The translations under genes were made by a program, and so were the position numbers. Positions 2,327-29,039 of a stretch of 64,000 nucleotides of DNA are shown one piece after another. Positions within the stretch are counted from its first letter, which is position 1. Every line of letters starts with the position of its first letter. The notes under the pieces were generated by a model, which searched no databases, was not told where the DNA came from, and saw only the letters and a program-made list of their open reading frames with translations. The stretch is from Pseudomonadota bacterium (GTDB lineage: Bacteria; Desulfobacterota; Desulfobacteria; Desulfobacterales; Desulfolunaceae), in the NCBI GenBank assembly GCA_018818835.1, contig JAHIRD010000141.1:4608-68607 (forward strand), in the 5' to 3' direction.

Positions 2327-3202
2327 TTAAAAACGGCTTGTTACGTTGATTCCAAGACCTTTTTCATCTCCGGCCCTTATTTCGAGGCCCAGAGAGAATA
2401 ACTCCTTGATATTCATGGTCACCCCCACGAAATATCCAATGTTTTTAGACCATGTGATATCTTCTGTGTAATGAATGAACCCCTCATTAAAATAGAGGGT
2501 GCTGTAATTTCTGTTCGTATAATCCTCCGACCCGGTGATGCTGGCGACTTTTACTCCCATGTATGGAGAATAGGTTGGCATGTTTGCCGATAAACAGAAC
2601 GCCAGTTGAACCTCGTCAAGTGTGGATGCGTAGGATATTCCTTCTGACTTGAATCGGTCTTCTTCTATGGTTAATCGTCGGTAGGTGATATCCATTCCAA
2701 ATGTCACAGGGATATCACCTTTGTATTCTCCCCGGTGCATGACAAAACTTGCACCCATGCCATAATAAAGATCAGGCCCTGACTCGAAGGTATCATGGCT
2801 TGCATAGGACCTGCTGACGGTCCAGTCGCTGTAATCGAAATTAATGGTAGATGTGCTGGTCCCCAGAAGGGCGTAAATGATACTGCTGTCGTTGATGGGA
2901 GCACCGACTTTAAGCCCCATGGTATCCATGGTATTTTTTGATTTTCGTGTCTGGGGGTAATGGCGCTGCTCAGGAGGCGAAATGTTCGGATTGGTCCAGG
3001 GAAAACGCGTGATCTGTTCGGGAAGATCATTGACCTGCCTGTCAAAGGAAACCGTGGTGATGATTGATATTCCACCATCTTTCTGGAACGGACCTGGATT
3101 CCACAATGCCGGATCACCGATATTACCAACAGGAGCGGCACATACGGCAATGGGCAGTAAGATACAGAAGCAGATCAATAGCATGTAGGGTGTACGGTTC
3201 AT
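2327..3202 (-). CDS. Outer-membrane beta-barrel protein, possibly MOMP-like
   Basis: ATG at 3202 with a GGAGAAAAGGA RBS. Signal peptide LLICFCILLPIAVCA. Alternating-polarity strands and a C-terminal ...NVTSRF with terminal Phe, the typical BAM signal. The mature N-terminus PVGNIGDPALW weakly recalls the LPVGNPAEPSL start of chlamydial/Legionella major outer-membrane proteins (from memory). Confidence 0.6.
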   Translation of the reverse strand: MNRTPYMLLICFCILLPIAVCAAPVGNIGDPALWNPGPFQKDGGISIITTVSFDRQVNDLPEQITRFPWTNPNISPPEQRHYPQTRKSKNTMDTMGLKVGAPINDSSIIYALLGTSTSTINFDYSDWTVSRSYASHDTFESGPDLYYGMGASFVMHRGEYKGDIPVTFGMDITYRRLTIEEDRFKSEGISYASTLDEVQLAFCLSANMPTYSPYMGVKVASITGSEDYTNRNYSTLYFNEGFIHYTEDITWSKNIGYFVGVTMNIKELFSLGLEIRAGDEKGLGINVTSRF

Positions 3203-3279
3203 TCCTTTTCTCCGAATAAAACCTCGAACAAATCAGGACAAGCCAGGCAATGGACCGTTATTCCCACAGTTTATCATGA

Positions 3280-3317
3280 TGAAAAAATATCATGGGGGCG
3301 GGTTTTACTCCGCCCCA
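3280..3317 (-). terminator. Rho-independent terminator after the 166-aa secreted-protein gene
   Basis: Minus sense reads GGGGCGGAGTAAAACCCGCCCCC followed by ATGATATTTTTTCATC. It lies about 100 nt downstream of the stop at 3414. Confidence 0.5.
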
Positions 3318-3413
3318 TGCATCATGGTGTGCTTTAAATATACTGGGATTTTATAACGGACTGTTTTCTGACGAAAAAAAGGAGGTAAAAGAGTGGCTGG
3401 TATAACGGCCCCA

Positions 3414-3914
3414 TTAGTTGGTCGTTATTCGCACGTTTCCGCTGATCTGGGCATGATAGTCACGGATGCTGATACTCCCGAAACTGTTTCCTTCTCCTGG
3501 TTCCGTTCCCACGGTGATGGATCCGATGTCAAAATGATCGACGTCAATGGTGGCGCCGTTTAAGCTGACATTGATTCCTGTCATCATGGTATGGGAAAAA
3601 AGATCTTGCTCGGTTGTAACAGAAATGGATACGGGTTCTTGAAGGTTGATAACGCCCTGGAATGAAACGTCATTGACGCTTAAATACCCAGCAGTGCCAT
3701 CGGTCCCGTCCGAATCTCCGTAAACCATGCTTCCGATTTCCATGTTAAGGGCAATTTGATCTGCTGCTGTAATTGCAATTCCCGCCTGTGCTGTTGCTTC
3801 GCGCATTCCCGTCTCAGTAAGTGCAGACAAGACCGCATACCCTTTTGAAGGAGTGATGGCCATACCCATAGAAACACATAATACAATTGTCATTAGGAAA
3901 CTAAGCTTTTTCAT
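3414..3914 (-). CDS. Small secreted protein (166 aa) with an N-terminal TAQAG box; paralog family member a
   Basis: The best start is ATG at 3914 (MKKLSFLMTIVLCVSMGMA) with a GGAGA RBS; the longer track ORF to 4040 runs into the riboswitch array. After the signal peptide comes LTETGMREATAQAGIAI, a box shared with ORFs 10042..10746, 10793..11599 and 11812..12642. Confidence 0.7.
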   Translation of the reverse strand: MKKLSFLMTIVLCVSMGMAITPSKGYAVLSALTETGMREATAQAGIAITAADQIALNMEIGSMVYGDSDGTDGTAGYLSVNDVSFQGVINLQEPVSISVTTEQDLFSHTMMTGINVSLNGATIDVDHFDIGSITVGTEPGEGNSFGSISIRDYHAQISGNVRITTN

Positions 3915-3944
3915 TGAGATCTCCTTATCTGTCAACGTCCTACA

Positions 3945-4006
3945 GGCAACCCGGCTGTCCATGGAGGACCCGTGGCTTTCCGTCCCAGGATTGCTCCTGG
4001 TTTGGC
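3945..4006 (-). promoter_or_regulatory. c-di-GMP-I (GEMM-I)-like riboswitch aptamer, unit 1 (closest to the gene)
   Basis: Minus sense: GCCAAACCAGGAGCAAUCCUGGGACGGAAAGCCACGGGUCCUCCAUGGACAGCCGGGUUGCC. The blocks are CAAACC, a 6-bp stem with a GCAA (GNRA) loop, GGGACGGAAAGCC, a second hairpin, and GGGUUGCC. This order matches the GEMM-I aptamer architecture as I recall it. Confidence 0.8.
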
Positions 4007-4010
4007 ATAG

Positions 4011-4092
4011 GAGGCGGCTCGGCTGTCCATGAAATTGCAATGCAAAAAAATGGACCCGTGGCTTTCCGTCCCAGGGTTACCCCTGGTTTGGC
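4011..4092 (-). promoter_or_regulatory. GEMM-I-like aptamer, unit 2
   Basis: Minus sense: GCCAAACCAGGGGUAACCCUGGGACGGAAAGCCACGGGUCCAU[19-nt loop]AUGGACAGCCGAGCCGCCUC. GUAA tetraloop. The 3' end is the variant CCGAGCCGCC. Confidence 0.65.
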
Positions 4093-4119
4093 CTTGTACG
4101 TCTTCTGTTAACTGTTACA

Positions 4120-4197
4120 GGTAACCCGGCTATCCATTTTATCATAAAGAAAAAATGGACCCGTGGCTTTCCGTCCCAGGGTTACCCCTGGTTTGGC
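4120..4197 (-). promoter_or_regulatory. GEMM-I-like aptamer, unit 3
   Basis: Minus sense: GCCAAACCAGGGGUAACCCUGGGACGGAAAGCCACGGGUCCAU[AU-rich loop]AUGGACAGCCGGGUUACC, except that plus-strand tatcc at 4131-4135 gives GGAUAGCC in place of GGACAGCC. Nearly identical to unit 5. Confidence 0.8.
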
Positions 4198-4200
4198 TCT

Positions 4201-4270
4201 GGAGGCGGCCCGGCTGTCCACACAATTATGGACCCGTGGCTTTCTGTCCCAGGGTTACCCCTGGTTTAGC
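4201..4270 (-). promoter_or_regulatory. GEMM-I-like aptamer, unit 4
   Basis: Minus sense: GCUAAACCAGGGGUAACCCUGGGACAGAAAGCCACGGGUCCAUAAUUGUGUGGACAGCCGGGCCGCCUCC. Two point variants are present (CUAAACC, GACAGAAAGCC). It resembles unit 2. Confidence 0.65.
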
Positions 4271-4277
4271 AATAAAT

Positions 4278-4355
4278 GGTAACCCGGCTGTCCATTTTAT
4301 CATAAAGAAAAAATGGACCCGTGGCTTTCCGTCCCAGGGTTACCCCTGGTTTGGC
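4278..4355 (-). promoter_or_regulatory. GEMM-I-like aptamer, unit 5 (5'-most in the RNA)
   Basis: Same blocks as unit 3; 3' end GGACAGCCGGGUUACC. Confidence 0.8.
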
Positions 4356-4515
4356 GCGCTTGTCACCCTTTTACCTCCACGCCCACCCTTTTTTTACGAA
4401 AAGGGCAGGCATGGTCTGTCCCGACTTGTCAAAGAACATGAGCTCACCCCAACCATGCAGATAACCTAAGACGGATATCGACATGATACAGGGAAAACTT
4501 AACGATAATAATTGA

Positions 4516-6021
4516 TCAGTTCGATAAAGTGACAGTGATCCTGAAAAATTCCGGATCAGGATTATCCAGCACACTGATCAGATGAAGTTTATTTGAACCA
4601 TCAAAAACAAGGGGTATCCCATCAATAATGCTTTTAATCTTTAAATTAATTTCGTGGTCGTTAATTACCAGAATCACATTTTTCCCCTTTTCGGCCAGAT
4701 ACGCTATATTCATCCCATCCGGGCTGAACAGGGGATTGAAAATCCGTGAATAGCCACGTCCTTCAATCCCGTCAGTAACCAGAAAGATATTTTTTTTATC
4801 GAGAACTTCATAAAACATATGGTTTGAGTCATTACTGAAACATGGGCTTTTTACATCCATATATTTTTTACCGGGTTTACCGTCTAAAATCACCATGTTA
4901 TTTTTTTCAGTTTTGACTGTATAGGCAACGTGTTTTGAATCCGGGCTGAACACCGGAGTACCCACAAATGGATAAAATCCTTGTTCCTGCCCGTCACAAA
5001 TCACGGTAAACTTATTCTTTTTAATTCCGATATGGGCAAAACGATTGGAATCAGGACTGAAAATATATGTACCGAGAAGATCATATGCGGAACCTTCTTT
5101 CCTATCCATAACAAGTACCCATTTGTTTCCTTTTTTTGCAGGGTAGGCCATATGTTTTGAGTCGGGGCTGAATACGGGAAGGCCCACAGTAGGATATTTT
5201 TCATGTTCCTTACCATCTTCGACGATGAAGATTTTAAACTTTTTTTGGGCTGCATAGGTAAGTCTGGTGGAATCAGGGCTCCATGTAATGGTCAGAACAT
5301 TCTCATAGGGTTTCCCCGTGAATCCGTCTTTGAATAGGAACCATGCCCCGTCTTTGAGTACAGCGCCGGCCAGATGGTTTGAATCCGGACTGAAAATAAG
5401 CTCTTTGATTCCCAAAAATGTGCCGATCTTCCGGGAATTTTTGATAACAAACCATTCCTTACCTTTTACGGCGATATAAGCCAGGTGTTTTGAATCCGGG
5501 CTGAACAAGGGCCGGCTTTTAATTTGATCAAACGGTTCGCCTGCCCTGTGATTTAACACGACAAAGAGTTCATTTCCCATCTTGGCCTTATACGCAAACT
5601 GTTTGCCGTCCGGGCTGAAAATCAGGTCGGATACCCCATCGAAATCCGGTCCTTTTTTCCCATCGATCACCACACATTGCTTGGAACCTTGAACCGCGAT
5701 ATAAGCAAGCCGGTTTGTTTTCGGGCTGAAAAAAGGGGTCCCCTTGGCGATACCATCAAAATCCGGGCCTTTCTTCGTGTCCAGATGAACAGCCATTTTC
5801 TGGTTAACTCGCGTTGCATATGCCACATGCTCTGCATCAGGCTTGTTCGTAGTCAGTCCGAACAGTTTGGACTCTTTGGGGAGTTTTCCTAAAGAGGTTT
5901 TGGTGATTGATACAGTCGGTTTGTCGCTTTTTTGACCTGCAAAGACAGCCAGGGTATGTGAAAAAAAACCGATCAGGCAAATAGAAAACAATGTCATACT
6001 TATTTTTTGAAACAAAACCAT
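4516..6021 (-). CDS. Periplasmic PD40 (TolB-type WD40-like) beta-propeller repeat protein
   Basis: ATG at 6021 and signal peptide LFSICLIGFFSHTLAVFA. About ten repeats of roughly 45 aa carry FSPD(S/G)(K/N)xxAY (FSPDGKQFAY, FSPDSKHLAY, FSPDSNHLAG, FSPDSKHMAY, FSPDGMNIAY). Confidence 0.8.
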   Translation of the reverse strand: MVLFQKISMTLFSICLIGFFSHTLAVFAGQKSDKPTVSITKTSLGKLPKESKLFGLTTNKPDAEHVAYATRVNQKMAVHLDTKKGPDFDGIAKGTPFFSPKTNRLAYIAVQGSKQCVVIDGKKGPDFDGVSDLIFSPDGKQFAYKAKMGNELFVVLNHRAGEPFDQIKSRPLFSPDSKHLAYIAVKGKEWFVIKNSRKIGTFLGIKELIFSPDSNHLAGAVLKDGAWFLFKDGFTGKPYENVLTITWSPDSTRLTYAAQKKFKIFIVEDGKEHEKYPTVGLPVFSPDSKHMAYPAKKGNKWVLVMDRKEGSAYDLLGTYIFSPDSNRFAHIGIKKNKFTVICDGQEQGFYPFVGTPVFSPDSKHVAYTVKTEKNNMVILDGKPGKKYMDVKSPCFSNDSNHMFYEVLDKKNIFLVTDGIEGRGYSRIFNPLFSPDGMNIAYLAEKGKNVILVINDHEINLKIKSIIDGIPLVFDGSNKLHLISVLDNPDPEFFRITVTLSN

Positions 6022-6081
6022 GTTAAAACCTTTTCTTATTTACAAAATTATATGGTTGCATGATATCTCTGCACGGTCCAA

Positions 6082-7965
6082 TTAGTTGTATTCCGCTGAT
6101 AAACGCTCAAGATATCTGTTGAACTCTTCTTCTTCCGTTTCCTCGGTTGTATTCAATTTTGATTCATCCGATTCCGGATGTTTTTTCTTTTTAAAGGGAT
6201 TTAATTTATGAAACAGCTCTTTGATTTTATGGATGCTGTGCTTCATCATCATCTGTTGGTGGTGAAGCATCTCCATCTGGACTTCCAGGGGCATGGTCAC
6301 GCCGAATGTGACAAGATAGATGCTTAAATCCTGCTCGTAATCAAGGCCGGCAAAGGGATTTCCCATCTGGGTGAAATCCAGGGAGTTCATATTGGTGCTT
6401 TCGTTATTATAAATGGTGAAATGATTGCTCCACAGATATCCCAGGCCCAGGTCAAAATCGATGCCGTTGGGGAGTTTGAGGCCAATGCCCGCTCCCACGA
6501 AATCAGCGTCCGGGATAAAATACAGGGCATCGAACTGATCATGCTGCAAAGATGTGGGGCGTTTTTCGTACCCGCAGCGCAAGGTCAGTTTATCGTTGAC
6601 CTCGAATTCCATGGCAGTACTCCAGTGCCAGGTGTCTTTCATGTTTCTGTCCACCACAAAGGTATAGGCCCCATGCTGGTAGCCCAGCATTTTTGCAATA
6701 CGAAGAATCTGGATCCTTTGGTCAAACACAAATCGGTCTTCTTTGCCGGCTGCTGCCCAGTTGGCCCAATGAACATCAAAAAGAAATTTAATCCTGTCCA
6801 AGGGGCGGACCATAATCCCTGTTTGAACCCGTGCAGGAAAAATCTGAGTGGCTGTAACGGTTCCGCTCTGATAGGGCACGGCCTTGATGGGAAGGTCCAG
6901 CATGCCTGCCGATTCCATGGTCATGGGGGTCGAGGCATTCCAGGCCACCTGTTTTTGGAACTGCTTGCTGTATTCCCACATGTATTTTCCGGAAATTTCT
7001 CCTACGGATTCACTTTGATAGCAGAACCCGTAGGAAAACCAAGTCCGAGGGCGCCATAAAAGACCCAGGTTGTATGAGGGAACAAAATCGTCTCTAAGGT
7101 CCATGGTAATGCTGATGTTGTGCTCATAAGGCCCAAGGCCGCCTCCCAACCAAGGGGGCGGGAGGGTTTGCTCTGACACCACGGGAATTTCAAGATCCTT
7201 GGTAGCATCCCCGATAACACGGGTCATGGCCACGAGTTCGTTGGGTGTCCGTACATCCAATTCAAGGCCCATGGCTCGCTGGGCCATACCAATGGAAACA
7301 CCCAGGAAAAGCTGGTCAGATACAGCAAAACTGGCTGAAGGTGCTGCATAGATCAAATGTTGTGCATACAGGGACTTGCATCCGAACTGGAAGGGATCAC
7401 CCTCATCCCGGTGGGCCATTCCGCCAGCAAAGGGGGCATAGTTGGCGTATGCAAAGGTCCACTTGCTGTCCGGCTTTCGTGAGGCCAAGCCCAGGTTCGG
7501 ACCTGCTAAAAAATCAATGGGGCCGTAGAAGGGCAGGTACATACGTCCTGATGAGTTTGTACCCGATTTCCCGTTCAATGGGTCAGGCCCGCCGTGGTCG
7601 CTGTTGGGATCGGTTGCGGAATCGTAATATTCAGGATATTTATTCTCATCCGGCCCCCAGTAACCGTTCATGAACCCTTCAAAATCATCAGCGGTCTTAA
7701 ACCGTCCTGTTCGTTTGATGATGGGCAGGGCAAATCCGTTGCTGAAGGTCTTGCCTTCATCTAATAAAGACAATCCCGCAGGATTGTAATGAACGGACAT
7801 CAGGCCGGGCGGGTCGGCTGTGCAGGTATTGGCCAGGGACACGGCACGGGCATCCACGGCAAGCTGCTCATTAAAAACCGCATGGCTCAAGGAAGGCATC
7901 AGGAATATACAGATAGGTATGGTGAACAACCCGCTGTATTTTATTATGAGACAGAGAACGCGCAA
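6082..7965 (-). CDS. FadL/TodX-family outer-membrane channel with an unusual charged C-terminal tail
   Basis: After the signal peptide: DARAVSLANTCTADPPGLMSVHYNPAGLSLL, a FadL-type N-terminal motif. I prefer the TTG start at 7965 (AGGAGA, then 6 nt, then TTG, giving M-RVLCLIIKYSGLFTIPICIFLMPSLSHA). The track ORF start at 8046 would overlap the upstream gene by 52 nt. Confidence 0.7.
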   Translation of the reverse strand: MRVLCLIIKYSGLFTIPICIFLMPSLSHAVFNEQLAVDARAVSLANTCTADPPGLMSVHYNPAGLSLLDEGKTFSNGFALPIIKRTGRFKTADDFEGFMNGYWGPDENKYPEYYDSATDPNSDHGGPDPLNGKSGTNSSGRMYLPFYGPIDFLAGPNLGLASRKPDSKWTFAYANYAPFAGGMAHRDEGDPFQFGCKSLYAQHLIYAAPSASFAVSDQLFLGVSIGMAQRAMGLELDVRTPNELVAMTRVIGDATKDLEIPVVSEQTLPPPWLGGGLGPYEHNISITMDLRDDFVPSYNLGLLWRPRTWFSYGFCYQSESVGEISGKYMWEYSKQFQKQVAWNASTPMTMESAGMLDLPIKAVPYQSGTVTATQIFPARVQTGIMVRPLDRIKFLFDVHWANWAAAGKEDRFVFDQRIQILRIAKMLGYQHGAYTFVVDRNMKDTWHWSTAMEFEVNDKLTLRCGYEKRPTSLQHDQFDALYFIPDADFVGAGIGLKLPNGIDFDLGLGYLWSNHFTIYNNESTNMNSLDFTQMGNPFAGLDYEQDLSIYLVTFGVTMPLEVQMEMLHHQQMMMKHSIHKIKELFHKLNPFKKKKHPESDESKLNTTEETEEEEFNRYLERLSAEYN

Positions 7966-7993
7966 AAAAAATCTCCTGTTCCTGAACCTGCCA

Positions 7994-9100
7994 TTACAAT
8001 TCGTAGGCAAAAGGGACTCTAACCTGAAGGGAAAAATCAGAGTCATTATTGGTCAAACCGATTCCCAGCCGGACATTCACAGAACGTTTCGGTGTAATGT
8101 TCCAGCCTGTTCCTATGCTGAAAACCGAGGAAATAGATCCTTCGGAACGTGTTTCCCGTGGCCCTTCCGGTCTGACCCAGTCATAGGATGTTTTGGACTG
8201 GTATGAATACTGATAGCTCAAGGTCAGGGATGCTTTATAGGACAGGGAATAGCCGATACCCATGGAAAAGGAATAAACTTCTCCAGGCTTGACACCGGCG
8301 AGGAATATTCCGGCTTCACCTTGAGTCCCGGTTTTGGAATTCAAATGGGTGGTTTCAATCCCATGCTCCACATTTATACCACCAAAAGCAACCAGGGGGT
8401 CGATGGATTTGCTGACATTGCAGCCCATGCCGATGGAATAGGTTCCGTTGCCCGTCGACATTTCTTTGGTGCTGTCAATTTTATAGGGGCTTCTTCCTGT
8501 TGGGCATGTTAATGACCCCGAGACAATTATTGATGGCAGGTCCTTACCGCTTTTCACGGGTTGGAATTGGAGACCGAACGACGTATCTCCAAAATCTGAA
8601 ACATTCTTTGCTGACGTATTGGTCTGGCTGTTGTATTTGTAAACAAAGGGGATATTGCTGTTTACTGTCAGGTTTTCTTTGACAGGATACTCGATGAGAA
8701 ATGAATTGGTCACCGTGTGGTATGCGTTGTGTTTCACGGCCACAATACTATCTGCATTGGCGGTGACGTTATCATAAGAATCACCGGCATAGCGAATGCT
8801 GTATTCAAAACCCAGTTTCCCAGGCTTCATGAGGGTATAATCACGGCCTGCGGCTGAAAGAATCGCGTCATCTTCAGAACTTTTTTCTTCCTGGGTGGTT
8901 TCAAGACGCCGCCTAATATCATTTTCTTCTTCCATTTTCGTGAGCTTGTCTTCAAGTCGTTTGATCTGCTCCTTGAATTGCTCCATATCGCTTGAAGGCT
9001 GCGCCTGCACGTTCACCACAGGGGGGGCTTCGGCATAAACCGCAGAGGTGAGAGTTATCATGGCTAAAATGATCAGTAGTTTTGTAAAATGTTTTATCAC
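7994..9100 (-). CDS. Outer-membrane beta-barrel with an N-terminal coiled coil (FapF-like architecture)
   Basis: GTG at 9100 follows GGAGG at 8-nt spacing and gives the signal peptide IKHFTKLLIILAMITLTSAVYA. Alternative starts are 9127 and 9139. A heptad-rich segment MEQFKEQIKRLEDKLTKMEEENDIRRRLETTQEEK is followed by about 270 aa of amphipathic strands ending ...QVRVPFAYEL. Confidence 0.6.
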   Translation of the reverse strand: MIKHFTKLLIILAMITLTSAVYAEAPPVVNVQAQPSSDMEQFKEQIKRLEDKLTKMEEENDIRRRLETTQEEKSSEDDAILSAAGRDYTLMKPGKLGFEYSIRYAGDSYDNVTANADSIVAVKHNAYHTVTNSFLIEYPVKENLTVNSNIPFVYKYNSQTNTSAKNVSDFGDTSFGLQFQPVKSGKDLPSIIVSGSLTCPTGRSPYKIDSTKEMSTGNGTYSIGMGCNVSKSIDPLVAFGGINVEHGIETTHLNSKTGTQGEAGIFLAGVKPGEVYSFSMGIGYSLSYKASLTLSYQYSYQSKTSYDWVRPEGPRETRSEGSISSVFSIGTGWNITPKRSVNVRLGIGLTNNDSDFSLQVRVPFAYEL

Positions 9101-9147
9101 CTGGTTTCCCTCCGGACTCGGAACCATCTGGTCAGACAAAAATGGTT

Positions 9148-9912
9148 CTATTGTTTATACCGGTTAGTCTTTGTGTCTGTCGTAGTTCCATTATTATGAA
9201 AATCAGCTTCCCATTCCTGGGGAAGGTCAAATGGTCTGTCTACATCGAACATCAGAGTTTTTTCCATATCCTTATCTATAAACCGGAGATCCTGTTCTTT
9301 GAGGCTTAGGCAGGACAGGGCGTTCCCGTATTTCGGGTAGATTCTGAAAAGGATATTGTTATACCACATGCCCATAAACTGGTCCACCGGGTAACTCCCG
9401 TTTCCCCGCCAGGGATCGGCTACGAACACATGGCCTTTGTGAATGGCTTTCAAGACCACAAAATGACGGTAGCCGAACAGCTCTATGGGAACAATGCATG
9501 GCCAGAGTTCAGGATTTTTCAGGTCGGAAAGCTCCGCGTTGTAGCCACCGGCCTTGTACCCCAGAACATCCACGAACTTCTGCATGTCCCAGAGGGAAAA
9601 AGCTCTGAGTTTTTTAATTTGTTCTTTGTCCCCATACTCTAGAAGACCCTTGATAATTTGTTTTTCAGTAAAATTTTCTCCCAGGTAGTTGTTGAGGATG
9701 GTCCCTAAAGCCGCTGATCCGCAGCTGTAATCGTAATTTTGCTTCATCAGGCAGGCCTGGGAACTTTCGGAGAGAGGGATGACTTCAGGGTAGATGCGCA
9801 AGGCTTCATTAGTCCCCATGGCAATATTCAATTCACCTTTGGGGGATGAATGGAAGGGATGAAATCCTGAGATCAGTCCAGCAAAAATGATAAATGCAAA
9901 AACCACATGCAT
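9148..9912 (-). CDS. Secreted C39-family (bacteriocin-processing type) cysteine peptidase domain protein
   Basis: ATG at 9912 with an N-terminal hydrophobic signal. Q-x5-C motif in KQNYDYSCGSAALGTIL, His in YRHFVVLKAI, and Asp in HVFVADPW. This is the complete C39 Gln/Cys/His/Asp arrangement. Confidence 0.8.
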   Translation of the reverse strand: MHVVFAFIIFAGLISGFHPFHSSPKGELNIAMGTNEALRIYPEVIPLSESSQACLMKQNYDYSCGSAALGTILNNYLGENFTEKQIIKGLLEYGDKEQIKKLRAFSLWDMQKFVDVLGYKAGGYNAELSDLKNPELWPCIVPIELFGYRHFVVLKAIHKGHVFVADPWRGNGSYPVDQFMGMWYNNILFRIYPKYGNALSCLSLKEQDLRFIDKDMEKTLMFDVDRPFDLPQEWEADFHNNGTTTDTKTNRYKQ

Positions 9913-10041
9913 ATTATAACCCTCTATCCATCGCGCAGGAGAAATTTCCTGCCCACTGTTCCCAAAGTATTGAAACAGTACATATCAAAAAATATCGGAA
10001 AAGGCACTGTATTATTGCTGTGATATCCAGGTTCACGGCGG

Positions 10042-10746
10042 TCATGGAGAATCCCACCACGTTCCAATTGAACCCGATTTAATCTCAGTCTCATCATACC
10101 CTGCAACGACCTTGAGGCCGGGCGTTGATCCACTCTGGCCCAGGTCTAATATAAAAAAAAGACCCATGTTACTGGTTGGGCTTCCATCGGAATTGAAATT
10201 AAATGTGGTCTGCCCCAGGTTGGCTTTATCATATACGGTCGGGCTTCCACCACTTAAGGCGATGGCAGGATTGTATGTGCCGGAGTAGCTGAGCATGTTG
10301 GCGCTGATCGTCCCCTGGAGCCGATTGGATCCTATGACGATGCGTTCGAGAACAGGATTTGTGGCAGAGGTGTCATCAAAGTCGGCAATAAAGACCAAAC
10401 CGTCAATGGTCAGGGGGGTATCCGTAGATGTATCCCCCAAAATCACATTGTTCCATTGAATATCATAGTTTGCTGCTGCTCCGCTCCTTAAGCTGTCGAT
10501 GGTCGCGTAGGTTTCCATATGAATATCCAGAAAAAGTCGGGCCGTACTGTTGCTCATGGTGAAATTGGTTAAACCGGCCTGGCCGGTCGATGATTTGAGC
10601 GCGTTTTCGTCCATGGCTTTGAGCTCGGCATGGAGCGACGATGGTAAGAATATAAAACAGAAAATAACAAGCACCATTAACTGGTAAACCAGTTTATCTC
10701 TGAACAAAAGTCCATCGAATCGGTGTATGAAAATTACTCTGTTCAT
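10042..10746 (-). CDS. Secreted protein (234 aa) with an N-terminal TGQAG box; paralog family member b
   Basis: ATG at 10746. Signal LMVLVIFCFIFLPSSLHA, then ELKAMDENALKSSTGQAGLTNF. Ser/Thr/Gly/Asn-rich and beta-rich, with no Cys after the signal peptide. Confidence 0.7.
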   Translation of the reverse strand: MNRVIFIHRFDGLLFRDKLVYQLMVLVIFCFIFLPSSLHAELKAMDENALKSSTGQAGLTNFTMSNSTARLFLDIHMETYATIDSLRSGAAANYDIQWNNVILGDTSTDTPLTIDGLVFIADFDDTSATNPVLERIVIGSNRLQGTISANMLSYSGTYNPAIALSGGSPTVYDKANLGQTTFNFNSDGSPTSNMGLFFILDLGQSGSTPGLKVVAGYDETEIKSGSIGTWWDSP

Positions 10747-10792
10747 TATGCTGTATTCCTGCCTTACCCTATTTATTCGTTATGATAACGGC

Positions 10793-11599
10793 TTAAGGAT
10801 TTCCTAACCCACGGCCGGGGATCTCTATGTAAAGTTTTTGAACATTCATGCCGTCAATTGCAAATAGACCCAAGTCTGTCGTGCCTGAGTCAGGAGCATT
10901 GACCTGTATATTATCGATATGGAAGGAACCCGACATGGGCATGTTCAAGCTGATATGTGCATTAGATTCAGCTGAAATATCGATGGTTGCAGGCTTGTTA
11001 TTCGTAAGATCACCCACTTGAATATCAAAGGTGATACCGGAAAAGTTCAACGCGTCTGTCGTGTTGTACTTATAAGAGAGAGTGTCTATTGTGATTTTGT
11101 GGCCTAGTTCGTAGTCGATACCCATACTGCCGACATGGGGCCCAATGAACAGGTGAAAAGATGACAGGACCATGGATTCAGCGGTTAGAGAACCGATATT
11201 TGTTCCGGAAAAATCGATGGCGTCAATGGTCATATCCGTGGATATTGAAATATCAGGACTTTGGCTAAAAAACATGATTTGATCATTGTAAGTGCCCACA
11301 TCAATGCTCAAATGGTTGATTTTGCCGTCATCGTCCATGTCAGATGAACCTGTGTTTGTGTGGGTAAGAATATGGATGTCGTTGAAGCTTATATATTCAG
11401 TTTCATCATCGGGATTGTAAAAGGTCATGTTGTCACTGTGGACTTCTGTGATCATGTCACCAATGGCGATATCAATACCGGCCTGGGCCATGGTTTTTTT
11501 CATCTGTTGGTTGGACAGTGCTTCAAGGCAGCATCCGGTGTCCGGGATGATGCTTATGATGCTCAACACGATGAATAAGTATGTTAAGGCCTGGGTCAC
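10793..11599 (-). CDS. Secreted protein (268 aa) with an N-terminal MAQAG box; paralog family member c
   Basis: GTG at 11599 after AAGGA. Hydrophobic N-terminus LTYLFIVLSIISII, then LEALSNQQMKKTMAQAGIDIAIGD. Asp/Ser/Thr/Ile-rich. Confidence 0.65.
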   Translation of the reverse strand: MTQALTYLFIVLSIISIIPDTGCCLEALSNQQMKKTMAQAGIDIAIGDMITEVHSDNMTFYNPDDETEYISFNDIHILTHTNTGSSDMDDDGKINHLSIDVGTYNDQIMFFSQSPDISISTDMTIDAIDFSGTNIGSLTAESMVLSSFHLFIGPHVGSMGIDYELGHKITIDTLSYKYNTTDALNFSGITFDIQVGDLTNNKPATIDISAESNAHISLNMPMSGSFHIDNIQVNAPDSGTTDLGLFAIDGMNVQKLYIEIPGRGLGNP

Positions 11600-11641
11600 A
11601 GAGTTGTCCTTTAAAACATAATGTTTTGTATGTCACTCCAA

Positions 11642-11708
11642 GGCAACCCGACCATCCGGTGGGCACCGGACTCGAAGCTTTCCGTCCCCGGATTGCTCCG
11701 GGTTTGGC
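11642..11708 (-). promoter_or_regulatory. GEMM-I-like riboswitch aptamer in the leader of the 10793..11599 operon
   Basis: Minus sense: GCCAAACCCGGAGCAAUCCGGGGACGGAAAGCUUCGAGUCCGGUGCCCACCGGAUGGUCGGGUUGCC. Stem 1 is CCCGGA/UCCGGG with a GCAA loop (compensatory changes relative to the other copies). It ends 42 nt upstream of the start codon. Confidence 0.8.
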
Positions 11709-11732
11709 GTTTCTTGAAACATTTGATCCTAT

Positions 11733-11776
11733 GAAAAAGCCCCTTCCGGGAAACATCTATGTTCAGGGAAGGGGCT
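11733..11776 (-). terminator. Rho-independent terminator after the 276-aa gene
   Basis: Minus sense: AGCCCCTTCC-loop-GGAAGGGGCT (10-bp stem) followed by TTTTTCAT. It starts about 35 nt downstream of the stop at 11812. Confidence 0.65.
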
Positions 11777-11811
11777 CCACGTAAATCACTTATGAGGATT
11801 GTGCTAATTCA

Positions 11812-12642
11812 TTAGTGAGCAGCGATTTCAACAATTCCACCAAGGATAGCCATTGCGCTCTGGCCTTTGGAAATTTTGATGAAGTTTGCATTATTGTTGA
11901 TACCGGTTCCTGCAACACCAACTGAATATTCATCAGCTGTGGTGGAGATAAGAAGGGTCGGAAGACCAATCACAACACCAGTGACAGCCTGAGTGGTACC
12001 AATCGCAGTTGCTGTAGGATCAGCTGCAAGAGTAGCAACACCGGAACCTAAAAGAACGCCGGCTTCAGAGATGTCACGAACATCAGTATCTGCAGAAATA
12101 GTAGCAAGTGCAGTTGCTTTTGCAGTACCGAGAGCAATAAGGTTGGCCATAGAAGGATCGCCAGCATAGGTAGCAGCTGCTGTGGCAACAAGACCTGATT
12201 GAGTCAATACGGTAGTCAGGAGTGCACCGGCATCAGCATTAATGATGGCATTATTGGCATTAACTCCAGCTGCAAGGATTGAACAAGCTCCTACGTCAAT
12301 GTTAAGAGCAGCAGCTTCAACCCAAGTACCCTTGTTGACAACACCAGCTGCAGCAAGGAAGTCAGCTTCGTAATCAGTCTGTGAAGTCATGGCTAGGTAT
12401 TCTTTCACAACGTGTTTGTCACTGATAACGATTGAGCCTTCAACACCGTTTGTTCCGTCTTCATCCGTATAAGTGGTTGAACCTGTGAATTGTTCGATCA
12501 CAACGTTATCCAAAGTGATGCTCACACCAGCCTGACCAGTGGCGGATTTCATGTTGGCGTCAGTCATTGAAGTCAAAGCAAAGACTGAAGGAGCGATTGC
12601 GAGAGATGCACCAAGAACTAAACTCATAGCTAATTTTTTCAT
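11812..12642 (-). CDS. Secreted Ala/Gly/Thr/Val-rich protein (276 aa) with an N-terminal TGQAG box; paralog family member d
   Basis: ATG at 12642 with a GGAGAAGAAA RBS (the track start 12654 is a TTG). Signal MKKLAMSLVLGASLAIAPSVFA, then LTSMTDANMKSATGQAGVSITLDN. The rest is low-complexity A/G/T/V sequence. It has its own terminator and its own riboswitch-like leader. Confidence 0.75.
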   Translation of the reverse strand: MKKLAMSLVLGASLAIAPSVFALTSMTDANMKSATGQAGVSITLDNVVIEQFTGSTTYTDEDGTNGVEGSIVISDKHVVKEYLAMTSQTDYEADFLAAAGVVNKGTWVEAAALNIDVGACSILAAGVNANNAIINADAGALLTTVLTQSGLVATAAATYAGDPSMANLIALGTAKATALATISADTDVRDISEAGVLLGSGVATLAADPTATAIGTTQAVTGVVIGLPTLLISTTADEYSVGVAGTGINNNANFIKISKGQSAMAILGGIVEIAAH

Positions 12643-12686
12643 TTTCTTCTCCAAAGTAAAATTAAAAATTAATTTAATTTACCAGA

Positions 12687-12762
12687 GGCAACCCGACCAT
12701 CCCCATCGCAAGCATGATGCGGACTCGTTGGCTTTCCGTCCCTGGATTACTCCAGGTTTGGT
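12687..12762 (-). promoter_or_regulatory. GEMM-I-like riboswitch aptamer, variant with A at the selectivity position
   Basis: Minus sense: AUACCAAACCUGGAGUAAUCCAGGGACGGAAAGCCAACGAGUCC...GGAUGGUCGGGUUGCC. Stem 1 is CCUGGA/UCCAGG with a GUAA loop. The base two nt 5' of CAAACC is A here; it is G in the other six copies. Confidence 0.75.
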
Positions 12763-13765
12763 ATTTTCTTTGGCGGTTTTGCTTGCGCACCCTTGCGCAA
12801 GACAAATTGATTTGTAAAAACGATTTACCATTAAACAGATTCGTTTAACGTTCTTAAGAATTAGCCTCCTTTCCATATAAAAAGAAATGTCCCCACATTC
12901 CAGTTAATATTCATATCCCTAATGAGTCTTTTTAAAGATCTTAAGGGACACGCGACGACCTAACTAAAGCCGCCGGAAACAACATGTATGTAAATTTTAG
13001 AAAGAGCTGATTTATGCCTACCTCGTAAACCGGTTGGCTGTGCGGCCCATGTGTTCTCGTGTGTGGGCCTTGTCTTCGCATTCAATCATCGGATGAACCA
13101 TTCAAAAATTGAAAGACCGTAACAATGTTTTATAAAACGTACGAAGATAATCCTTATGTACGAAAGTAGTAGGGTCGAATGATGATTGTATATCCGCTGC
13201 CCTTTTGCTTTGTCAATTAAAAATTTTCGATTTTCTTAAAAATTAAATTGTACGAGTATAAAAAAAAGTACTTGAAACGATTGACAATAGTCATTGTGAA
13301 CGCTGTTCATCAGTTGTGCCAAATGTACTAAATAGGTCCATTCGGTTGTACAGCTGTTAAAATATCGAAATTTCAGGCATTTGAATTATAGCCCCGAAAA
13401 ATGATTTCGCGAAATCCTGCGAAAATATGGGCTTTTACCGAACAATGTTCATGTACTGGAATGGGATTTTGAGGAAAAAATATGATTTCTATTGAGTTTT
13501 TAAGGAACTTGCGCGTTTGGTAAGGTACCTTTTTGATAAATCGGGGGTCACCATGGGCGTTTGTCAGGTGAAAGTAATTCAATTATCCGATTTTAAAGGT
13601 ATTTTAACTGAATATATGTAAAAAAGTTCTTAGCTTTATTAAGTATTTTACCCAAGGAGAGAAACATAGTTTCAATAAATGGACATAGATCTTAATGACG
13701 ATCATGATACTCAGACCCTATGTTTTTAAGGGCTCGCAGGCGTTTAATTGAAGGATGGCATGGGA

Positions 13766-19944: not shown

Positions 19945-19997
19945 CCTGACAACGCAAGATGGTAACAATTAAATTCAATTTAGTGGTGGAGTTGAAT

Positions 19998-22900
19998 ATG
20001 AAAAAGCATTTATTGATATGGATAACGGCATTTTGTATTGGCCTTATGTTGACTGCATGTGGAACAATGACGGAAAATACGGATGAAGAGGTTGATGAGT
20101 TCCAGAGTAATGGAACCCTGGATCCGGAAATCTACGCAAACTTCAAACTCCTTGAAGTATTTGACGGAAGGGGAGCCCTGGAGGAAATCTGGGACAGCAT
20201 TGATGCCAAGCAAACCAACCCCCGCCTGGAATGCACCGTGGACAAGTATCCCGATGATTTTGTGACCTTCTCCAATGTGGCTGCTGGGATTCTTCGTGCC
20301 GACAGCCAACCTGTTGCCGGCATGTTGTCATCGGAAACGGCGAGTATTATCGGGCGCATTCAGGATGAAAGCCCGGCTTTTATGGACAGCCCTCCGGATG
20401 TCGGAGCCTTTTACACCAAGGGCACGGATGTTTATGCAGATGACTTTTATAGTTTTCTGGACAAACTCTGGGAAGGGGATCAGAATCCGGGTGATCAGGC
20501 CATGGCGGCCATTGCCAGCAAGGTGGTGAGCCGGATTCTGGCTAAAAAGACCGCGGCGGATATTCTTGCCGACATGCAGGAACTGGTTGATGATATCCTG
20601 GATGCCGATTTTGACAGGGATTTCAATGATCTGGCCTCTCTTCTCGGCAAGCTGCTTATCCAGGCAGACTATCCGCTCTGGGTGGATGCTGAAGGACATC
20701 CTGTGAGCAGGGATGCCATTGATCCAACACTGGATACCAACCTGGGCGTGGGAAATGCCGTTGAAGGCATGAACACCTTTGTAAACTGGTTCAATAAATT
20801 AATGGCCAATGCCCAGTCACGGGAACTTCTCTACGGTGTGATCCGTGAGTCTGTGAAAATGTTCGATCCTGATCCCGACTCCCCGAACAGCGAAAAAGTA
20901 AAAGCACTGCTTCGGAATCTGGAAGACCATTTTACAAAAGGCGGATCGGTTTACGAGTCCAACCCCCTTTACAAGAGTGCGCCGGATGATCCCACTTACA
21001 CCGATACGGAACTCGGGCAAACTGTCCGTGAATTCATGCCTTACCTGGCCCAGCTTCTGGCCCGGTCGGACCGGCCCATTTCCCTGGTCAAACATGATGA
21101 GGGTGAGGAGCCTGTGTATCTCTTGAGGGAGATGGTCCATGCCTTGAAGAGCGTCGGCTATGATCCGGATGCCCTGAACATGGAAGATTCCCTGACGATG
21201 ATGATGCAATACGACCTTCTTGGGCGTGATAGGACTGACAAGGATTCCGGAGCTTTCCCGGCATCATTCCTTGAAAGTATGATGTTTCTAACCTGTGCCA
21301 CAACAAATTTCGGATTTGCTGACGGTGGGCACACAGGGGAAACCACCCAGGTTACGAATCCCACCACCCAGCACGGCCACGGAGCATATCTGGAGGCTTT
21401 AACGCTCAACGATTCACTGATCAGCATGACCACGAACAAGACCATGGGGCTTCTCGGGATTTACGATATTTCATTCATGGCAAATGACAAGGAGTACATG
21501 TCCCGGAGTCTGGTGCCGTTCACCACGGATAACCGGAGTGACTATCAATTTGATTTTAATCAGGACTACGCTATTTTAAAGGCCCTTCCCACGAATTGTT
21601 CCGGAGATCTGGGTACACCGGACGGGGGGAATCCCAACGGTGTGAGTCCTGGGAAAAATATGTACACGCCCTATAATCCCACAGGCATTGGCGAAACCCA
21701 GCTGGCGGCATGGACGGTGAACTGGGTGGTCCGAAGTTGCTTCGGGGGAGAAGGACCTTATTACTATGCCGACCCGAATGCGGAAACCGTTACGGTGAAC
21801 GGAAAAGAATATTCTAAATTTTTGCGTCCCGACGGCCGTGTTTATGCCCTTGTCAATATGGCCACCGATCCCTGGGAATATATTTATCCCACAGACGGAG
21901 ACAGGGATGCCGAAGATATGGAAACTGCGGCTCTTGCCGATTATAACGGCCAACGCCAGCGTTTGAACCGGTTTAAATCAACCTGGCATTCGGATTATTA
22001 CATGTACCGGAGGAATAATCTGATCCGGACGGTGGACAACAGCAGCGGAAATTTTACAACCGTGGCATTGAGAGACGGAGACGCGGCACAAAGGCTTACC
22101 TATCATGAACTGATTCCCGAAGATGACCGGACCCATGTGCGAGCCTGCGCAAGTCCTGAAGAAGCATTTTTCAGAAACTATCAGTGGGTTTACATGGAAA
22201 AGAAAATGGTCTTGATCATTCCCCAGAGTTTGAGCCTCATGGGGCTTGGCTATGGCCATGTGTTCATGGTCCTGGAAGCCAATGGCTGGTCTGGACTTGC
22301 AAATATGAGGATTTTAGAAGAAAACCATGTGTGGGCCAAACAAAAAACCGATGGAATCTCGGATATCCCGGGTGATTACCGGGTTGAGTTGAAAGCCGAC
22401 ATGACAGCCATTACATCCGTTGCCGTAAACACAGGCTCTGTTTACAATGGAACATTGGGCAGGGGACATTCCACGCCGGCCATTGTTGGAAAAAATCTTC
22501 CGGCACTCTATCGGCTGGCCTTTCCTATCAGTCCTGAGATGGACCGGGGCAATGGTGTGATCGATGTTGAACTGGGATCCCGGGAATTTGAGGTGGGGGA
22601 TGAGATATGGCAGCGACGAAATGCCGTTGCACCGGCCTTTGTCTCATTGCTCTACGCCATTGATAAACACCGGGTACTCTATCCGGATTTTGACCCGTCC
22701 TCCCTGCAAAGCGGCATTCATGGTAACTTGAACAACCTGGTTCCCCTGATAAAGCCTTTGATGTTTTATGCAAAAAACGGTGAGGGGAACATTCCGCCAT
22801 ATGATGTCTGGAAAGTTCGCGTTCAGTCCGCACCCAACAGTGAAGATTGGGCTGGAGAACCCTATCTGAGACCCAGCATAGGCTTTTCGGGCAACCAGAG

Positions 22901-23999
22901 GTGGGATGGAACCGATGATGAATGGACCTATTACCAGCCTGCTGTGATGAAAAACTTTATCAATGTCTTGATTGACAGTGATATCATGGCATCGGTGACC
23001 CAGGGAAAACGCATGGACGGGATTCTGCCTGTCATGGCGGAAAACAGGGCTGTGACCAATCTTTTTAAAATTTTGATGAGCGATATCAACGATACCAATG
23101 AGCTGTACAGTGCTTTGGAGCAGATCACCGGGGCCGTAAAATACACCGAAGGCCAGTTGACAGCAATCAACCGCCCGATGGATTCAGCCAAGAAACTTTC
23201 CTTCCCCGACTGGATGTTCGCCCAGGGAACGGGTGCCGACGAATTCGGTTTTTATACGGAGTTTACAGGTGTGCGCCCCGAGGATATCATTCTTGACATC
23301 GGTCTGGACCGGCTTGTGGGCCATAATTCTTTTGATGATGGTGTGGAACATGAGGGCTATGGCCTTGCCTACTATGTGGATGACCAGGAAGCATTAAGCT
23401 GGGCTGATTTTGACAAGGATGTGGATGCCATGGAGGATTTACTGCATCCTGACAGTGAATACAGCATCGTGGAGTCCTTCATCGATATGCAGGATGCCAT
23501 CTTTGCAAGGGATTATCAGTATTCACAGGATCAGGTGGCAGGTCTCTTGTATACCCTGGGAAAGGTCTTTACCCGTTTTGATCATGACCAGAGTCGGTGG
23601 GTGGTCCAAGGGGAAGCCGGTTTTAATGATCTATACTCCATTTTAAAGCAGAGGGTCCCGGTTATCCACGATATGGTCAAGGACGAGACCGGAGCCAATT
23701 ATTGGTCCTTTATGAAAGTGAACAAGGACATGCTTGCCCAGATAAACGCGTGCGAATCCTCCAATGGAATGATGCCCTACCTTCTGAGTGCCATGAGCAG
23801 CGACGATGGGGCAGAAAAGATCATGACCGATTTCCACACCTTTTTGATGGATGACATCGTGTCCAAACCCGCCCCATTGTGGACCACTCTGGCTGATCTT
23901 CTGGCAGACATGGCCCAGGCCGTGGATAACTCCAATGAAGGGGAGCTGGTTGAAAAGGTTTTCGAGTCCTATGGGTTCCAGCGCAACGGGGATTATTGA
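19998..23999 (+). CDS. Giant lipoprotein (1333 aa), unknown function; paralog 1
   Basis: ATG at 19998 lies 7 nt after GGAG. MKKHLLIWITAFCIGLMLTAC carries a lipobox (LTAC). Acidic, no recognisable domain. Collinear with ORF 24664..28740 along its whole length; both end ...YGFQRNGDY. Confidence 0.85.
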   Translation: MKKHLLIWITAFCIGLMLTACGTMTENTDEEVDEFQSNGTLDPEIYANFKLLEVFDGRGALEEIWDSIDAKQTNPRLECTVDKYPDDFVTFSNVAAGILRADSQPVAGMLSSETASIIGRIQDESPAFMDSPPDVGAFYTKGTDVYADDFYSFLDKLWEGDQNPGDQAMAAIASKVVSRILAKKTAADILADMQELVDDILDADFDRDFNDLASLLGKLLIQADYPLWVDAEGHPVSRDAIDPTLDTNLGVGNAVEGMNTFVNWFNKLMANAQSRELLYGVIRESVKMFDPDPDSPNSEKVKALLRNLEDHFTKGGSVYESNPLYKSAPDDPTYTDTELGQTVREFMPYLAQLLARSDRPISLVKHDEGEEPVYLLREMVHALKSVGYDPDALNMEDSLTMMMQYDLLGRDRTDKDSGAFPASFLESMMFLTCATTNFGFADGGHTGETTQVTNPTTQHGHGAYLEALTLNDSLISMTTNKTMGLLGIYDISFMANDKEYMSRSLVPFTTDNRSDYQFDFNQDYAILKALPTNCSGDLGTPDGGNPNGVSPGKNMYTPYNPTGIGETQLAAWTVNWVVRSCFGGEGPYYYADPNAETVTVNGKEYSKFLRPDGRVYALVNMATDPWEYIYPTDGDRDAEDMETAALADYNGQRQRLNRFKSTWHSDYYMYRRNNLIRTVDNSSGNFTTVALRDGDAAQRLTYHELIPEDDRTHVRACASPEEAFFRNYQWVYMEKKMVLIIPQSLSLMGLGYGHVFMVLEANGWSGLANMRILEENHVWAKQKTDGISDIPGDYRVELKADMTAITSVAVNTGSVYNGTLGRGHSTPAIVGKNLPALYRLAFPISPEMDRGNGVIDVELGSREFEVGDEIWQRRNAVAPAFVSLLYAIDKHRVLYPDFDPSSLQSGIHGNLNNLVPLIKPLMFYAKNGEGNIPPYDVWKVRVQSAPNSEDWAGEPYLRPSIGFSGNQRWDGTDDEWTYYQPAVMKNFINVLIDSDIMASVTQGKRMDGILPVMAENRAVTNLFKILMSDINDTNELYSALEQITGAVKYTEGQLTAINRPMDSAKKLSFPDWMFAQGTGADEFGFYTEFTGVRPEDIILDIGLDRLVGHNSFDDGVEHEGYGLAYYVDDQEALSWADFDKDVDAMEDLLHPDSEYSIVESFIDMQDAIFARDYQYSQDQVAGLLYTLGKVFTRFDHDQSRWVVQGEAGFNDLYSILKQRVPVIHDMVKDETGANYWSFMKVNKDMLAQINACESSNGMMPYLLSAMSSDDGAEKIMTDFHTFLMDDIVSKPAPLWTTLADLLADMAQAVDNSNEGELVEKVFESYGFQRNGDY

Positions 24000-24270: not shown

Positions 24271-24663
24271 TTCCTGTTGTCTGTGAAAGGGACGTACATG
24301 TTATCCACGGTCCCCATGGCCCCAAAATGCTGTCAGATATCCAAATTGTTTTTTTGATGGTAAACCCATGTCATGCCTTTCTTAGTTGTTGAAATCAATG
24401 AACAATGTACACCCAAGATAACGTTGTGAGTTTTGCACGTGTAAAATAAAGTGGGGGGCGTTGTTGAAAGATTCTTGACAGTCGCTTTAATGCCATTTAT
24501 TTCAATATAATAGTTAGATTGTATTGGGTGGGGGCCTTCTTGATTTTTTAGATGATCTCTGTTGTTTTTGCTTGCAAAGTACCTGCGTATGAAGTCTGGC
24601 GCCCCGGATGTCCCGAAATATTAAATGGTAACGTAAGATTCATTGACGAGCTGGAGTTTGAGA

Positions 24664-28804: not shown

Positions 28805-29039
28805 TTAAACACTGGAAGATAATAGGACATATAAGTCCCATGGGTCCCATAGGTCCCATAAGACTTTTATGTCCTTTTTTTTAGAAAACCTGTGTTTTCC
28901 AGGGCGGAGTCCCCGGCTTTTCTTTTCAGGTTTGTTTGATCAAGGGATTGATCAAACAAATCACGATGTGATACATTTAATTCACGTATTTTTTATTCTG
29001 TGTCATGGCAATTCCCAGTTTAATTCACGAGGCCACTGT

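Follow-up and report, generated by a model that had tools for sequence, protein, structure and literature searches.

The window, as the whole 64,000-nucleotide stretch of DNA analysed here is called, was found to carry on its minus strand a riboswitch aptamer of the GEMM-I (c-di-GMP-I) fold in which the nucleotide equivalent to G20 of the Vc2 aptamer is an A. With A20, A47 and C92 (Vc2 numbering), the pocket is, by its sequence, of the GEMM-Ib (c-AMP-GMP) type. The chances that this riboswitch would respond to cGAMP in vivo, be it selectively or dually with c-di-GMP, appear about even. The aptamer, its key nucleotides and the gene behind it are located as follows.

12683 to 12772, minus strand: GEMM-I (c-di-GMP-I fold) aptamer with A at the G20 position, found with RF01051 and with our own covariance model.
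12762, minus strand: A, at the place of the partner of the ligand alpha base (Vc2 G20, Gs1761 A14), from covariance and MAFFT alignments.
12735, minus strand: A equivalent to Vc2 A47 and Gs1761 A41, between the two ligand bases (column 38 of alignments A2 and A3).
12687 to 12689, minus strand: G-C-C equivalent to Gs1761 G74-C75-C76, from covariance and MAFFT alignments.
11812 to 12642, minus strand: gene for a 276-aa DUF6160 protein with a signal-peptide-like N-terminus (Pfam PF19657, E = 3.8e-9).

When the window was searched with the Rfam c-di-GMP-I model RF01051 (gathering score 35), positions 12684-12772 of the minus strand were matched with 53.0 bits (E = 1.6e-7) over the full model (1-87 of 87), and a covariance model of our own (R1), which was built from the seven window copies and then run on all loci, gave the aptamer at 12683-12772 a score of 83.3 bits. 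In the RF01051 alignment A12762 falls with top posterior probability on model position 11, the last unpaired nucleotide 5' of the 2-bp helix that flanks CAAA, where the consensus is G. The original prediction had counted seven aptamers in the window, and seven were found, five of them head to tail; it had also read an A two nucleotides upstream of CAAACC in this copy and a G in the six others, and inspection of the sequence confirmed the A at 12762 (minus strand) as well as the G at 4355, 4270, 4197, 4092, 4006 and 11708, with UAAACC taking the place of CAAACC in the 4270 copy. Its assignment of the A to the G20 position of Vc2 was borne out by three alignments that agree with one another. These were the RF01051 alignment, a MAFFT alignment of the seven window copies, where one column holds A solely in the 12683-12772 copy and G in the other six, and a MAFFT alignment with the G. 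metallireducens pilM cGAMP riboswitch and the C. difficile Cd1 c-di-GMP riboswitch (both as given in the PMC9262584 supplement), where the window A lies beneath the A of pilM and the G of Cd1. The window copy and Gmet pilM have the J1/2 string AAUAC in common. A covariance-model alignment that put the A outside the ligand pocket had been named as grounds for rejecting the idea, and no such placement was obtained.

The P2 and P3 helices have covariation support among relatives. Across 62 distinct related aptamers, standard pairs occupied 97.5% of cells in an alignment that is model-fitted and leans towards structure, and in P2/P3 changes on both sides were seen in 13 of 18 pairs, with none of 500 shuffles reaching the observed values. 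The aptamer lies in the 5' UTR, on the same strand as the gene and 40 nt upstream of the ATG at 12642; it had been described as controlling the gene for a 276-aa secreted protein with a terminator of its own, and a signal-peptide-like N-terminus and the terminator were both seen.

A sequencing or assembly error as the source of A12762 was excluded by 13 other distinct sequences that have the same A and come from independent assemblies. Membership of RF03167, the c-di-GMP-I-GGC variant, was likewise considered and rejected: this model aligns to the 12683-12772 aptamer only under permissive thresholds, and the aptamer was placed outside the family because its score of 53.3 bits is below the gathering score of 59 and because it retains A47, the sequence being GGAAAGCC with an A where RF03167 has a G.

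The aptamer lacks the G20 of the c-di-GMP-selective RF01051 members, having A at 12762, and keeps the GEMM-Ib features of A20 within a GEMM-I fold, C92 (C12688) and A47 (A12735). C12688 is the middle C of the GCC and corresponds to Vc2 C92, the Watson-Crick partner of the beta guanine, while column 38, the A47 equivalent, is A in all aptamers of alignments A2 and A3. In the Vc2 structure A47 is stacked between the two ligand bases, and this place was assigned to A12735. The contacts made with cGAMP in PDB 4YAZ involve G8, A11, A12, U13, A14, C15, A41, A42, G74, C75 and C76 (PMC7288161), and the window copy is identical to Gs1761 at 11 of these 11 nucleotides (alignment A2 columns 5, 8-12, 38-39 and 89-91); since the base is the same as in Gs1761 at each contact column, the A is placed in the pocket.

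[quoted passage not shown] The A47-equivalent A intercalates between both ligand bases (PMC5888326). In the window copy, the Hoogsteen edge of the cGAMP adenine would pair with the Watson-Crick edge of A20, as in the Geobacter structures, C92 would pair with the ligand guanine and A47 would be stacked between both ligand bases. Binding of c-di-GMP to the A20 pocket would proceed via an N1-protonated A and would be far weaker than binding to the G20 pocket.

Position 20 had been put forward as the main specificity switch, and published work backs this view (PMC6140456, PMC6456294). Wild-type Vc2 has picomolar affinity for c-di-GMP and binds cGAMP at 10 uM, and its G20A variant is bispecific, with 53 nM for c-di-GMP and 120 nM for cGAMP (PMC6140456). 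In the opposite direction, A20G in Gmet_0970 changes cGAMP selectivity to c-di-GMP selectivity (PMC6456294). The cGAMP selectivity of Gm0970 is ~1600-fold. Gs1761 was reported to show 0.53 nM for cGAMP vs 660 nM for c-di-GMP by in-line probing, and a selectivity of only ~3-fold by ITC in another buffer (PMC6140456). In the literature cited, every reported A20 aptamer binds cGAMP, and some favour c-di-GMP, among them the natural A20 aptamer Cbe 1-2 with 30 nM for c-di-GMP vs 463 nM for cGAMP, a ~15-fold c-di-GMP preference (PMC6140456). Selectivity is also shifted by lower-P2 mutations (PMC9262584) and by P1 stability (PMC6140456). A20 is necessary and not sufficient for cGAMP selectivity; by analogy with these aptamers, the A20 pocket very likely binds cGAMP in the nanomolar range, with c-di-GMP binding strongly weakened.

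Another interpretation of these data is that no cGAMP is made and that A20 merely lowers c-di-GMP affinity by orders of magnitude, in which case the riboswitch would be a c-di-GMP sensor with a shifted threshold and the first DUF6160 gene would be turned on at higher c-di-GMP than the genes behind the G20 copies. We regard this as a strong contender that falls somewhat short of an even chance. Both the loss from picomolar affinity to 53 nM in Vc2 G20A and the fact that Cbe 1-2 holds c-di-GMP more tightly than cGAMP are in keeping with it (PMC6140456). Affinity could, however, be tuned in other ways, such as P1 strength or the expression platform, and yet it is exactly the cGAMP-pocket substitution that has been kept; the full set of Gs1761 contact nucleotides in the window copy likewise stands against a simple shift of threshold.

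Conservation of the A was studied in loci of DUF6160 homologues, 21 from reference genomes and 38 from metagenomes, plus exact look-ups; the window itself lies within the 157.7-kb metagenome contig ERZ27247128 k141_1157839. Position 20 in the 63 loci was A in 15 aptamers (14 distinct) and G in 62, and A47 and C92 were invariant across all A20 and G20 aptamers found. The A20 copies form one clade, a grouping that persists when column 20 is dropped from the distance. Every one of them lies 40-50 nt upstream of an orthologue of the 276-aa gene (49-82% identity), and it is always the closest orthologue in Desulfobacteraceae that an A20 copy precedes. Carriers include Desulfatiferula olefinivorans, with two copies, a Desulforapulum autotrophicum MAG, another Desulforapulum MAG, a Desulfobacteraceae MAG and several metagenome contigs. 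In the loci of distant homologues (<=40% identity over the full length), from Desulfoluna, Desulfobotulus, Desulfamplus and others, position 20 is G.

The A-clade signature reads CA[AUC]AGAAAA[AGU]-A-CCAAA[CG]C ... GCCA[AU]CGA[GA]UC ... GGUCGGGUU[AG]CCUCUG. Members of the clade have U, A or G as the unpaired neighbour of A20, one P1 position is variable, P2 carries compensatory changes and the P3 tip is different in nearly each sequence, with A20 invariant throughout. One event seems to lie behind all the A copies, which therefore do not amount to 15 independent observations, and the pattern points to a single origin of A20 followed by retention under selection. Conservation across an orthologous riboswitch lineage makes a stronger case that the A is functional; as it was kept in all orthologous copies found, the A20 variant is surely functional, a real tuning of the sensor, so far as comparison of sequences can tell.

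It could be that the A is simply tolerated, or that the aptamer no longer binds a ligand. The A20 copy does score below its sister copies on RF01051 (53 bits vs 62-65), and it has an additional bulged A (GCCA-A-CGAG) and a G.G mismatch in distal P3, all of which would fit a neutral or decaying variant. The bulged A is present in many G20 copies as well, however, and 14 distinct sequences all have the A at position 20, with identity between the proteins encoded behind them down to ~50%. The unpaired positions next to it and the P3 tip change freely whereas the A does not, and the helices, A47, C92 and the expression platform have all been retained. We consider neutrality or decay very improbable.

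Pairings between the aptamer and the leader of the gene suggest how binding might be coupled to expression; they are listed here with two flanking transcript elements.

12768 to 12774, minus strand: P1 5' strand GCCAAAG, which can base-pair, apart from one A.C mismatch, with CUCUGGU at 12681-12687 (read from the sequence).
12649 to 12687, minus strand: alternative hairpin formed by the P1 3' strand CUCUGGUAAA with UUUAC..UGGAG (MFE fold and RNAalifold).
11734 to 11775, minus strand: terminator-like hairpin GCCCCUUCC ... GGAAGGGGC followed by UUUUU, which ends a monocistronic unit (read from the sequence).
12782 to 12801, minus strand: GC-rich hairpin CUUGCGCAAGGGUGCGCAAG directly 5' of the aptamer, seen in most of 12 inspected A-clade orthologues.

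All A-clade orthologues could form the inferred P1 pairing, with that mismatch again at its centre. The alternative hairpin hides the Shine-Dalgarno sequence GGAG at 12649-12652, seven nt 5' of the ATG, and is present both in the MFE fold of the leader and in the RNAalifold consensus of 11 orthologues. In those orthologues 10 of 10 pairs are kept and none is variable, so the anti-Shine-Dalgarno hairpin has conservation on its side and no covariation support. This arrangement suggests a translational ON switch for the 276-aa gene. Ligand binding would close P1 (GCCAAAG with CUCUGGU), the closed P1 would pull CUCU out of the hairpin over GGAG and free the ribosome-binding site, and translation of the DUF6160 protein would thereby be turned on. 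The terminator at 11734-11775 was missed by a pattern scan because its loop exceeds 8 nt, and a promoter scan of the minus strand gave nothing usable. Of the 12 A20 orthologues looked at, most retain the hairpin at 12782-12801, with compensatory changes; it could serve as a stabilising 5'-terminal stem of the transcript or have a regulatory role of its own.

The remaining six aptamers of the window, all with G20, lie in two places.

11638 to 11718, minus strand: next riboswitch, with G20 (RF01051, 61.7 bits), before a second DUF6160 gene and an operon for a C39 peptidase and a FadL-like protein.
3941 to 4367, minus strand: five head-to-tail G20 aptamers before a 166-aa DUF6160 gene at 3414-3914 (RF01051 and own model).

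The further RF01051 matches over threshold were at 4275-4365, 4117-4207, 4009-4101 and 11639-11718, and two more aptamers, at 3941-4008 and 4208-4269, were recovered by permissive settings or by our own model with filters off. That model, with filters off, delimited the array as 4274-4365, 4208-4269, 4116-4207, 4009-4102 and 3941-4008. Within the array, one aptamer has UAAACC with a compensating A in GACAG. For the c-di-GMP-I class the most that is generally described is a triple tandem, and five tandem aptamers may be a record. At the place of the window's five, the syntenic locus L062 has three copies (L062:18419-18667), so copy number differs among relatives. A separate G20 subgroup (A3 rows L019, L021, L035, L037, L040-L043, L049 and L050; for example L021:4850-4951) has CACACC, and once CACCCC, for CAAACC, together with GGGCCGG or GGGUCGG where others have GGGACGG. 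The change, from A..A to C..C/U, thus affects two nominally unpaired positions at once and suggests that they form a tertiary contact or a non-canonical pair.

The riboswitch that follows the A20 copy has G20 and precedes the second DUF6160 gene in all nine loci that extend far enough (9/9). As the A has been kept by selection and the neighbouring riboswitches keep G, the first gene of the cluster would have an input function different from theirs. A c-di-GMP threshold could be what differs, and there would then be three graded modules, governed by a single A20 aptamer, a single G20 aptamer and three to five tandem G20 copies; riboswitch architecture that differs from gene to gene within the cluster fits such tuning.

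Response to cGAMP, the reading in which the pocket would act in vivo as it does in Geobacter, calls attention to the source of the ligand. The lone GGDEF protein of the window, encoded at 40890-41639 on the plus strand, is a stand-alone domain whose best structural relatives are WspR-type cyclases. It had been noted to keep Asp, and Asp was indeed found at the PleD-D344 position (AGDEIL), along with a GGEEF motif. The Hypr signature is Ser/Thr at PleD-D344 plus GGDE[F/Y] (PMC6456294, PMC9140294), and because it has Asp and GGEEF the protein was assigned as a canonical diguanylate cyclase and not a Hypr enzyme. The statement that no local cGAMP source is evident was upheld for the 64-kb window, and when the window and 61 loci (~0.43 Mb) were translated in six frames and scanned by regex, they gave one GGDEF protein, which is canonical, and no cGAMP synthase. 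A 1110-aa protein with HEAT, cNMP-binding and PilZ domains is encoded at 44450-47782 (minus strand). A canonical diguanylate cyclase and a PilZ protein in a window without a cGAMP synthase, together with the rarity of Hypr enzymes (0.17% of GGDEF domains; PMC9140294), favour a c-di-GMP sensor with a shifted threshold; set against this, the absence of a synthase covers 64 kb of the source contig and ~0.39 Mb of related flanks.

Hypr-type proteins were also sought by homology. The Hypr domain of GmGacA was partly recovered from PDB 6d9m with a query that was a chimera of T4 lysozyme and GGDEF, and a homologue search with the 104-aa GmGacA piece returned short fragments only. When the query was padded to 390 aa, GacA orthologues were retrieved, and the best 120 with an organism name were mostly from Geobacter or Desulfuromonadales, the exceptions being one 'Deltaproteobacteria bacterium' and one Verrucomicrobiae fragment. 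When representative clusters were searched exhaustively with G. sulfurreducens GacA, 80 of the best 150 (50% identity; P0231-P0379) had Ser/Thr plus GGDE[F/Y], the motif being GGDEY in ~29 of these 80 clusters of GacA-like Rec-GGDEF proteins. From these sequences, the GacA-like Hypr family looks far more diverse in metagenomes than its few characterised members suggest. The searches seeded with GmGacA and GsGacA gave no Hypr-type protein attributable to Desulfobacteraceae, and as the GsGacA clusters carry no organism names, none of them was linked to this family either way. The in vivo ligand is divided between an even chance for cGAMP and the somewhat smaller one for c-di-GMP at a shifted threshold because some A20 aptamers favour c-di-GMP and a synthase was neither found nor excluded.

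A CdaA-type c-di-AMP synthase (DAC plus YbbR) is encoded at 28869-30470 on the plus strand, and the A20 pocket accepts adenine at the alpha site, which together could hint at another ligand, such as c-di-AMP or a linear dinucleotide. At the beta site, however, each copy has C92, which is Watson-Crick to guanine, and c-di-AMP would need a change there; nor is any A20/C92 GEMM-I variant reported as c-di-AMP-preferring in the literature cited. On the strength of the retained C92, c-di-AMP was ruled out, and a ligand other than the two guanine-containing cyclic dinucleotides seems to us a slim prospect. Even taken jointly, a neutral variant and another ligand would account for only a small share of the probability.

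A broader proposal, which we find rather unlikely, is that Desulfobacteraceae have an unrecognised Hypr-type 3',3'-cGAMP pathway and that control of the DUF6160 cluster is split between two messengers. If so, cGAMP would act via the A20 aptamer to gate the monocistronic first, and probably major, subunit, and c-di-GMP would act via the single and the 3-5-fold tandem G20 aptamers to gate the export and processing operon and the small paralogue.

The cluster under this control is conserved and spans 2327-12642 (minus strand) in the window, L002:2470-12297 and L062:10001-20162. It has three or four DUF6160 members, which are very divergent (the first two are 19% identical), and its other products are a C39 peptidase, a Phenol_MetA_deg-like protein, a FadL/TodX-like outer-membrane protein, one PD40-repeat protein and one beta-barrel protein. 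By its gene content, the cluster looks like a dedicated secretion or surface-structure system under riboswitch control. For the 276-aa protein 78 homologues were found, the named ones being from Desulfobacteraceae, and in its AlphaFold model (pLDDT 73) residues 121-207 form a helical bundle that is inserted into a beta core. A Foldseek search of this model against the PDB gave no match below E = 1, and a mention of DUF6160 was found in one paper, in passing. Elsewhere in the window, two adjacent paralogous ORFs of ~1350 aa without a Pfam match lie at 19959-23999 and 24643-28740 (plus strand) and share long identical stretches, for example ...FPDWMFAQGTGADEFGFYT....

In the literature cited, it is chiefly in Geobacter that cGAMP-responsive riboswitches are described, and there they define an entire regulon. 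If the window riboswitch does respond to cGAMP, its presence with the same pocket in the sulfate-reducing Desulfobacteraceae would mean that riboswitches read cGAMP in a further class of bacteria. If the A merely lowers c-di-GMP affinity, the locus would clearly illustrate how riboswitch variants can grade a threshold, which is of narrower interest. The A20 aptamer beside its G20 sisters in one cluster offers a natural side-by-side test of re-routing or re-tuning by one nucleotide, and the arrangement of adjacent A20 and G20 riboswitches on paralogous genes is conserved across genera, including the cultured Desulfatiferula olefinivorans with its two A20 copies. The DUF6160 cluster gains its first regulatory handle.

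Among known systems, the window aptamer shares with the Vc2 and Cd1 members of RF01051 all helices, a GNRA-type loop (GUAA), A47 and C92, and it belongs to the same clan as RF03167 (c-di-GMP-I-GGC). Compared with its sisters it is essentially a G to A change in the pocket, as in Vc2 G20A; that variant is engineered and bispecific (PMC6140456), whereas the window A is natural and conserved, the natural RF01051 consensus being G. By its description, Cbe 1-2 of Clostridium beijerinckii is also similar, with a natural A20 in a non-Geobacter host without a demonstrated cGAMP pathway. With the Geobacter GEMM-Ib riboswitches (Gs1761 upstream of pgcA, Gmet_0970 and Gmet pilM; PDB 4YAZ) the window copy has in common the GEMM-I fold, A20, A47, C92 and the C:G pair beside the A, and the ON logic of pilM (PMC9262584) is inferred for it too. 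The differences lie in the host, which is a Desulfobacteraceae member (class Desulfobacteria) and not Geobacter, in the platform, which is apparently translational, by Shine-Dalgarno sequestration, whereas pilM has a transcription terminator, and in the regulated gene, which encodes a DUF6160 protein and not the cytochrome or pilus component of the Geobacter examples. What is new about the A20 riboswitch is the lineage of its host and the gene that it is associated with; its type, GEMM-Ib, is a known one, and it is not a new mechanism.
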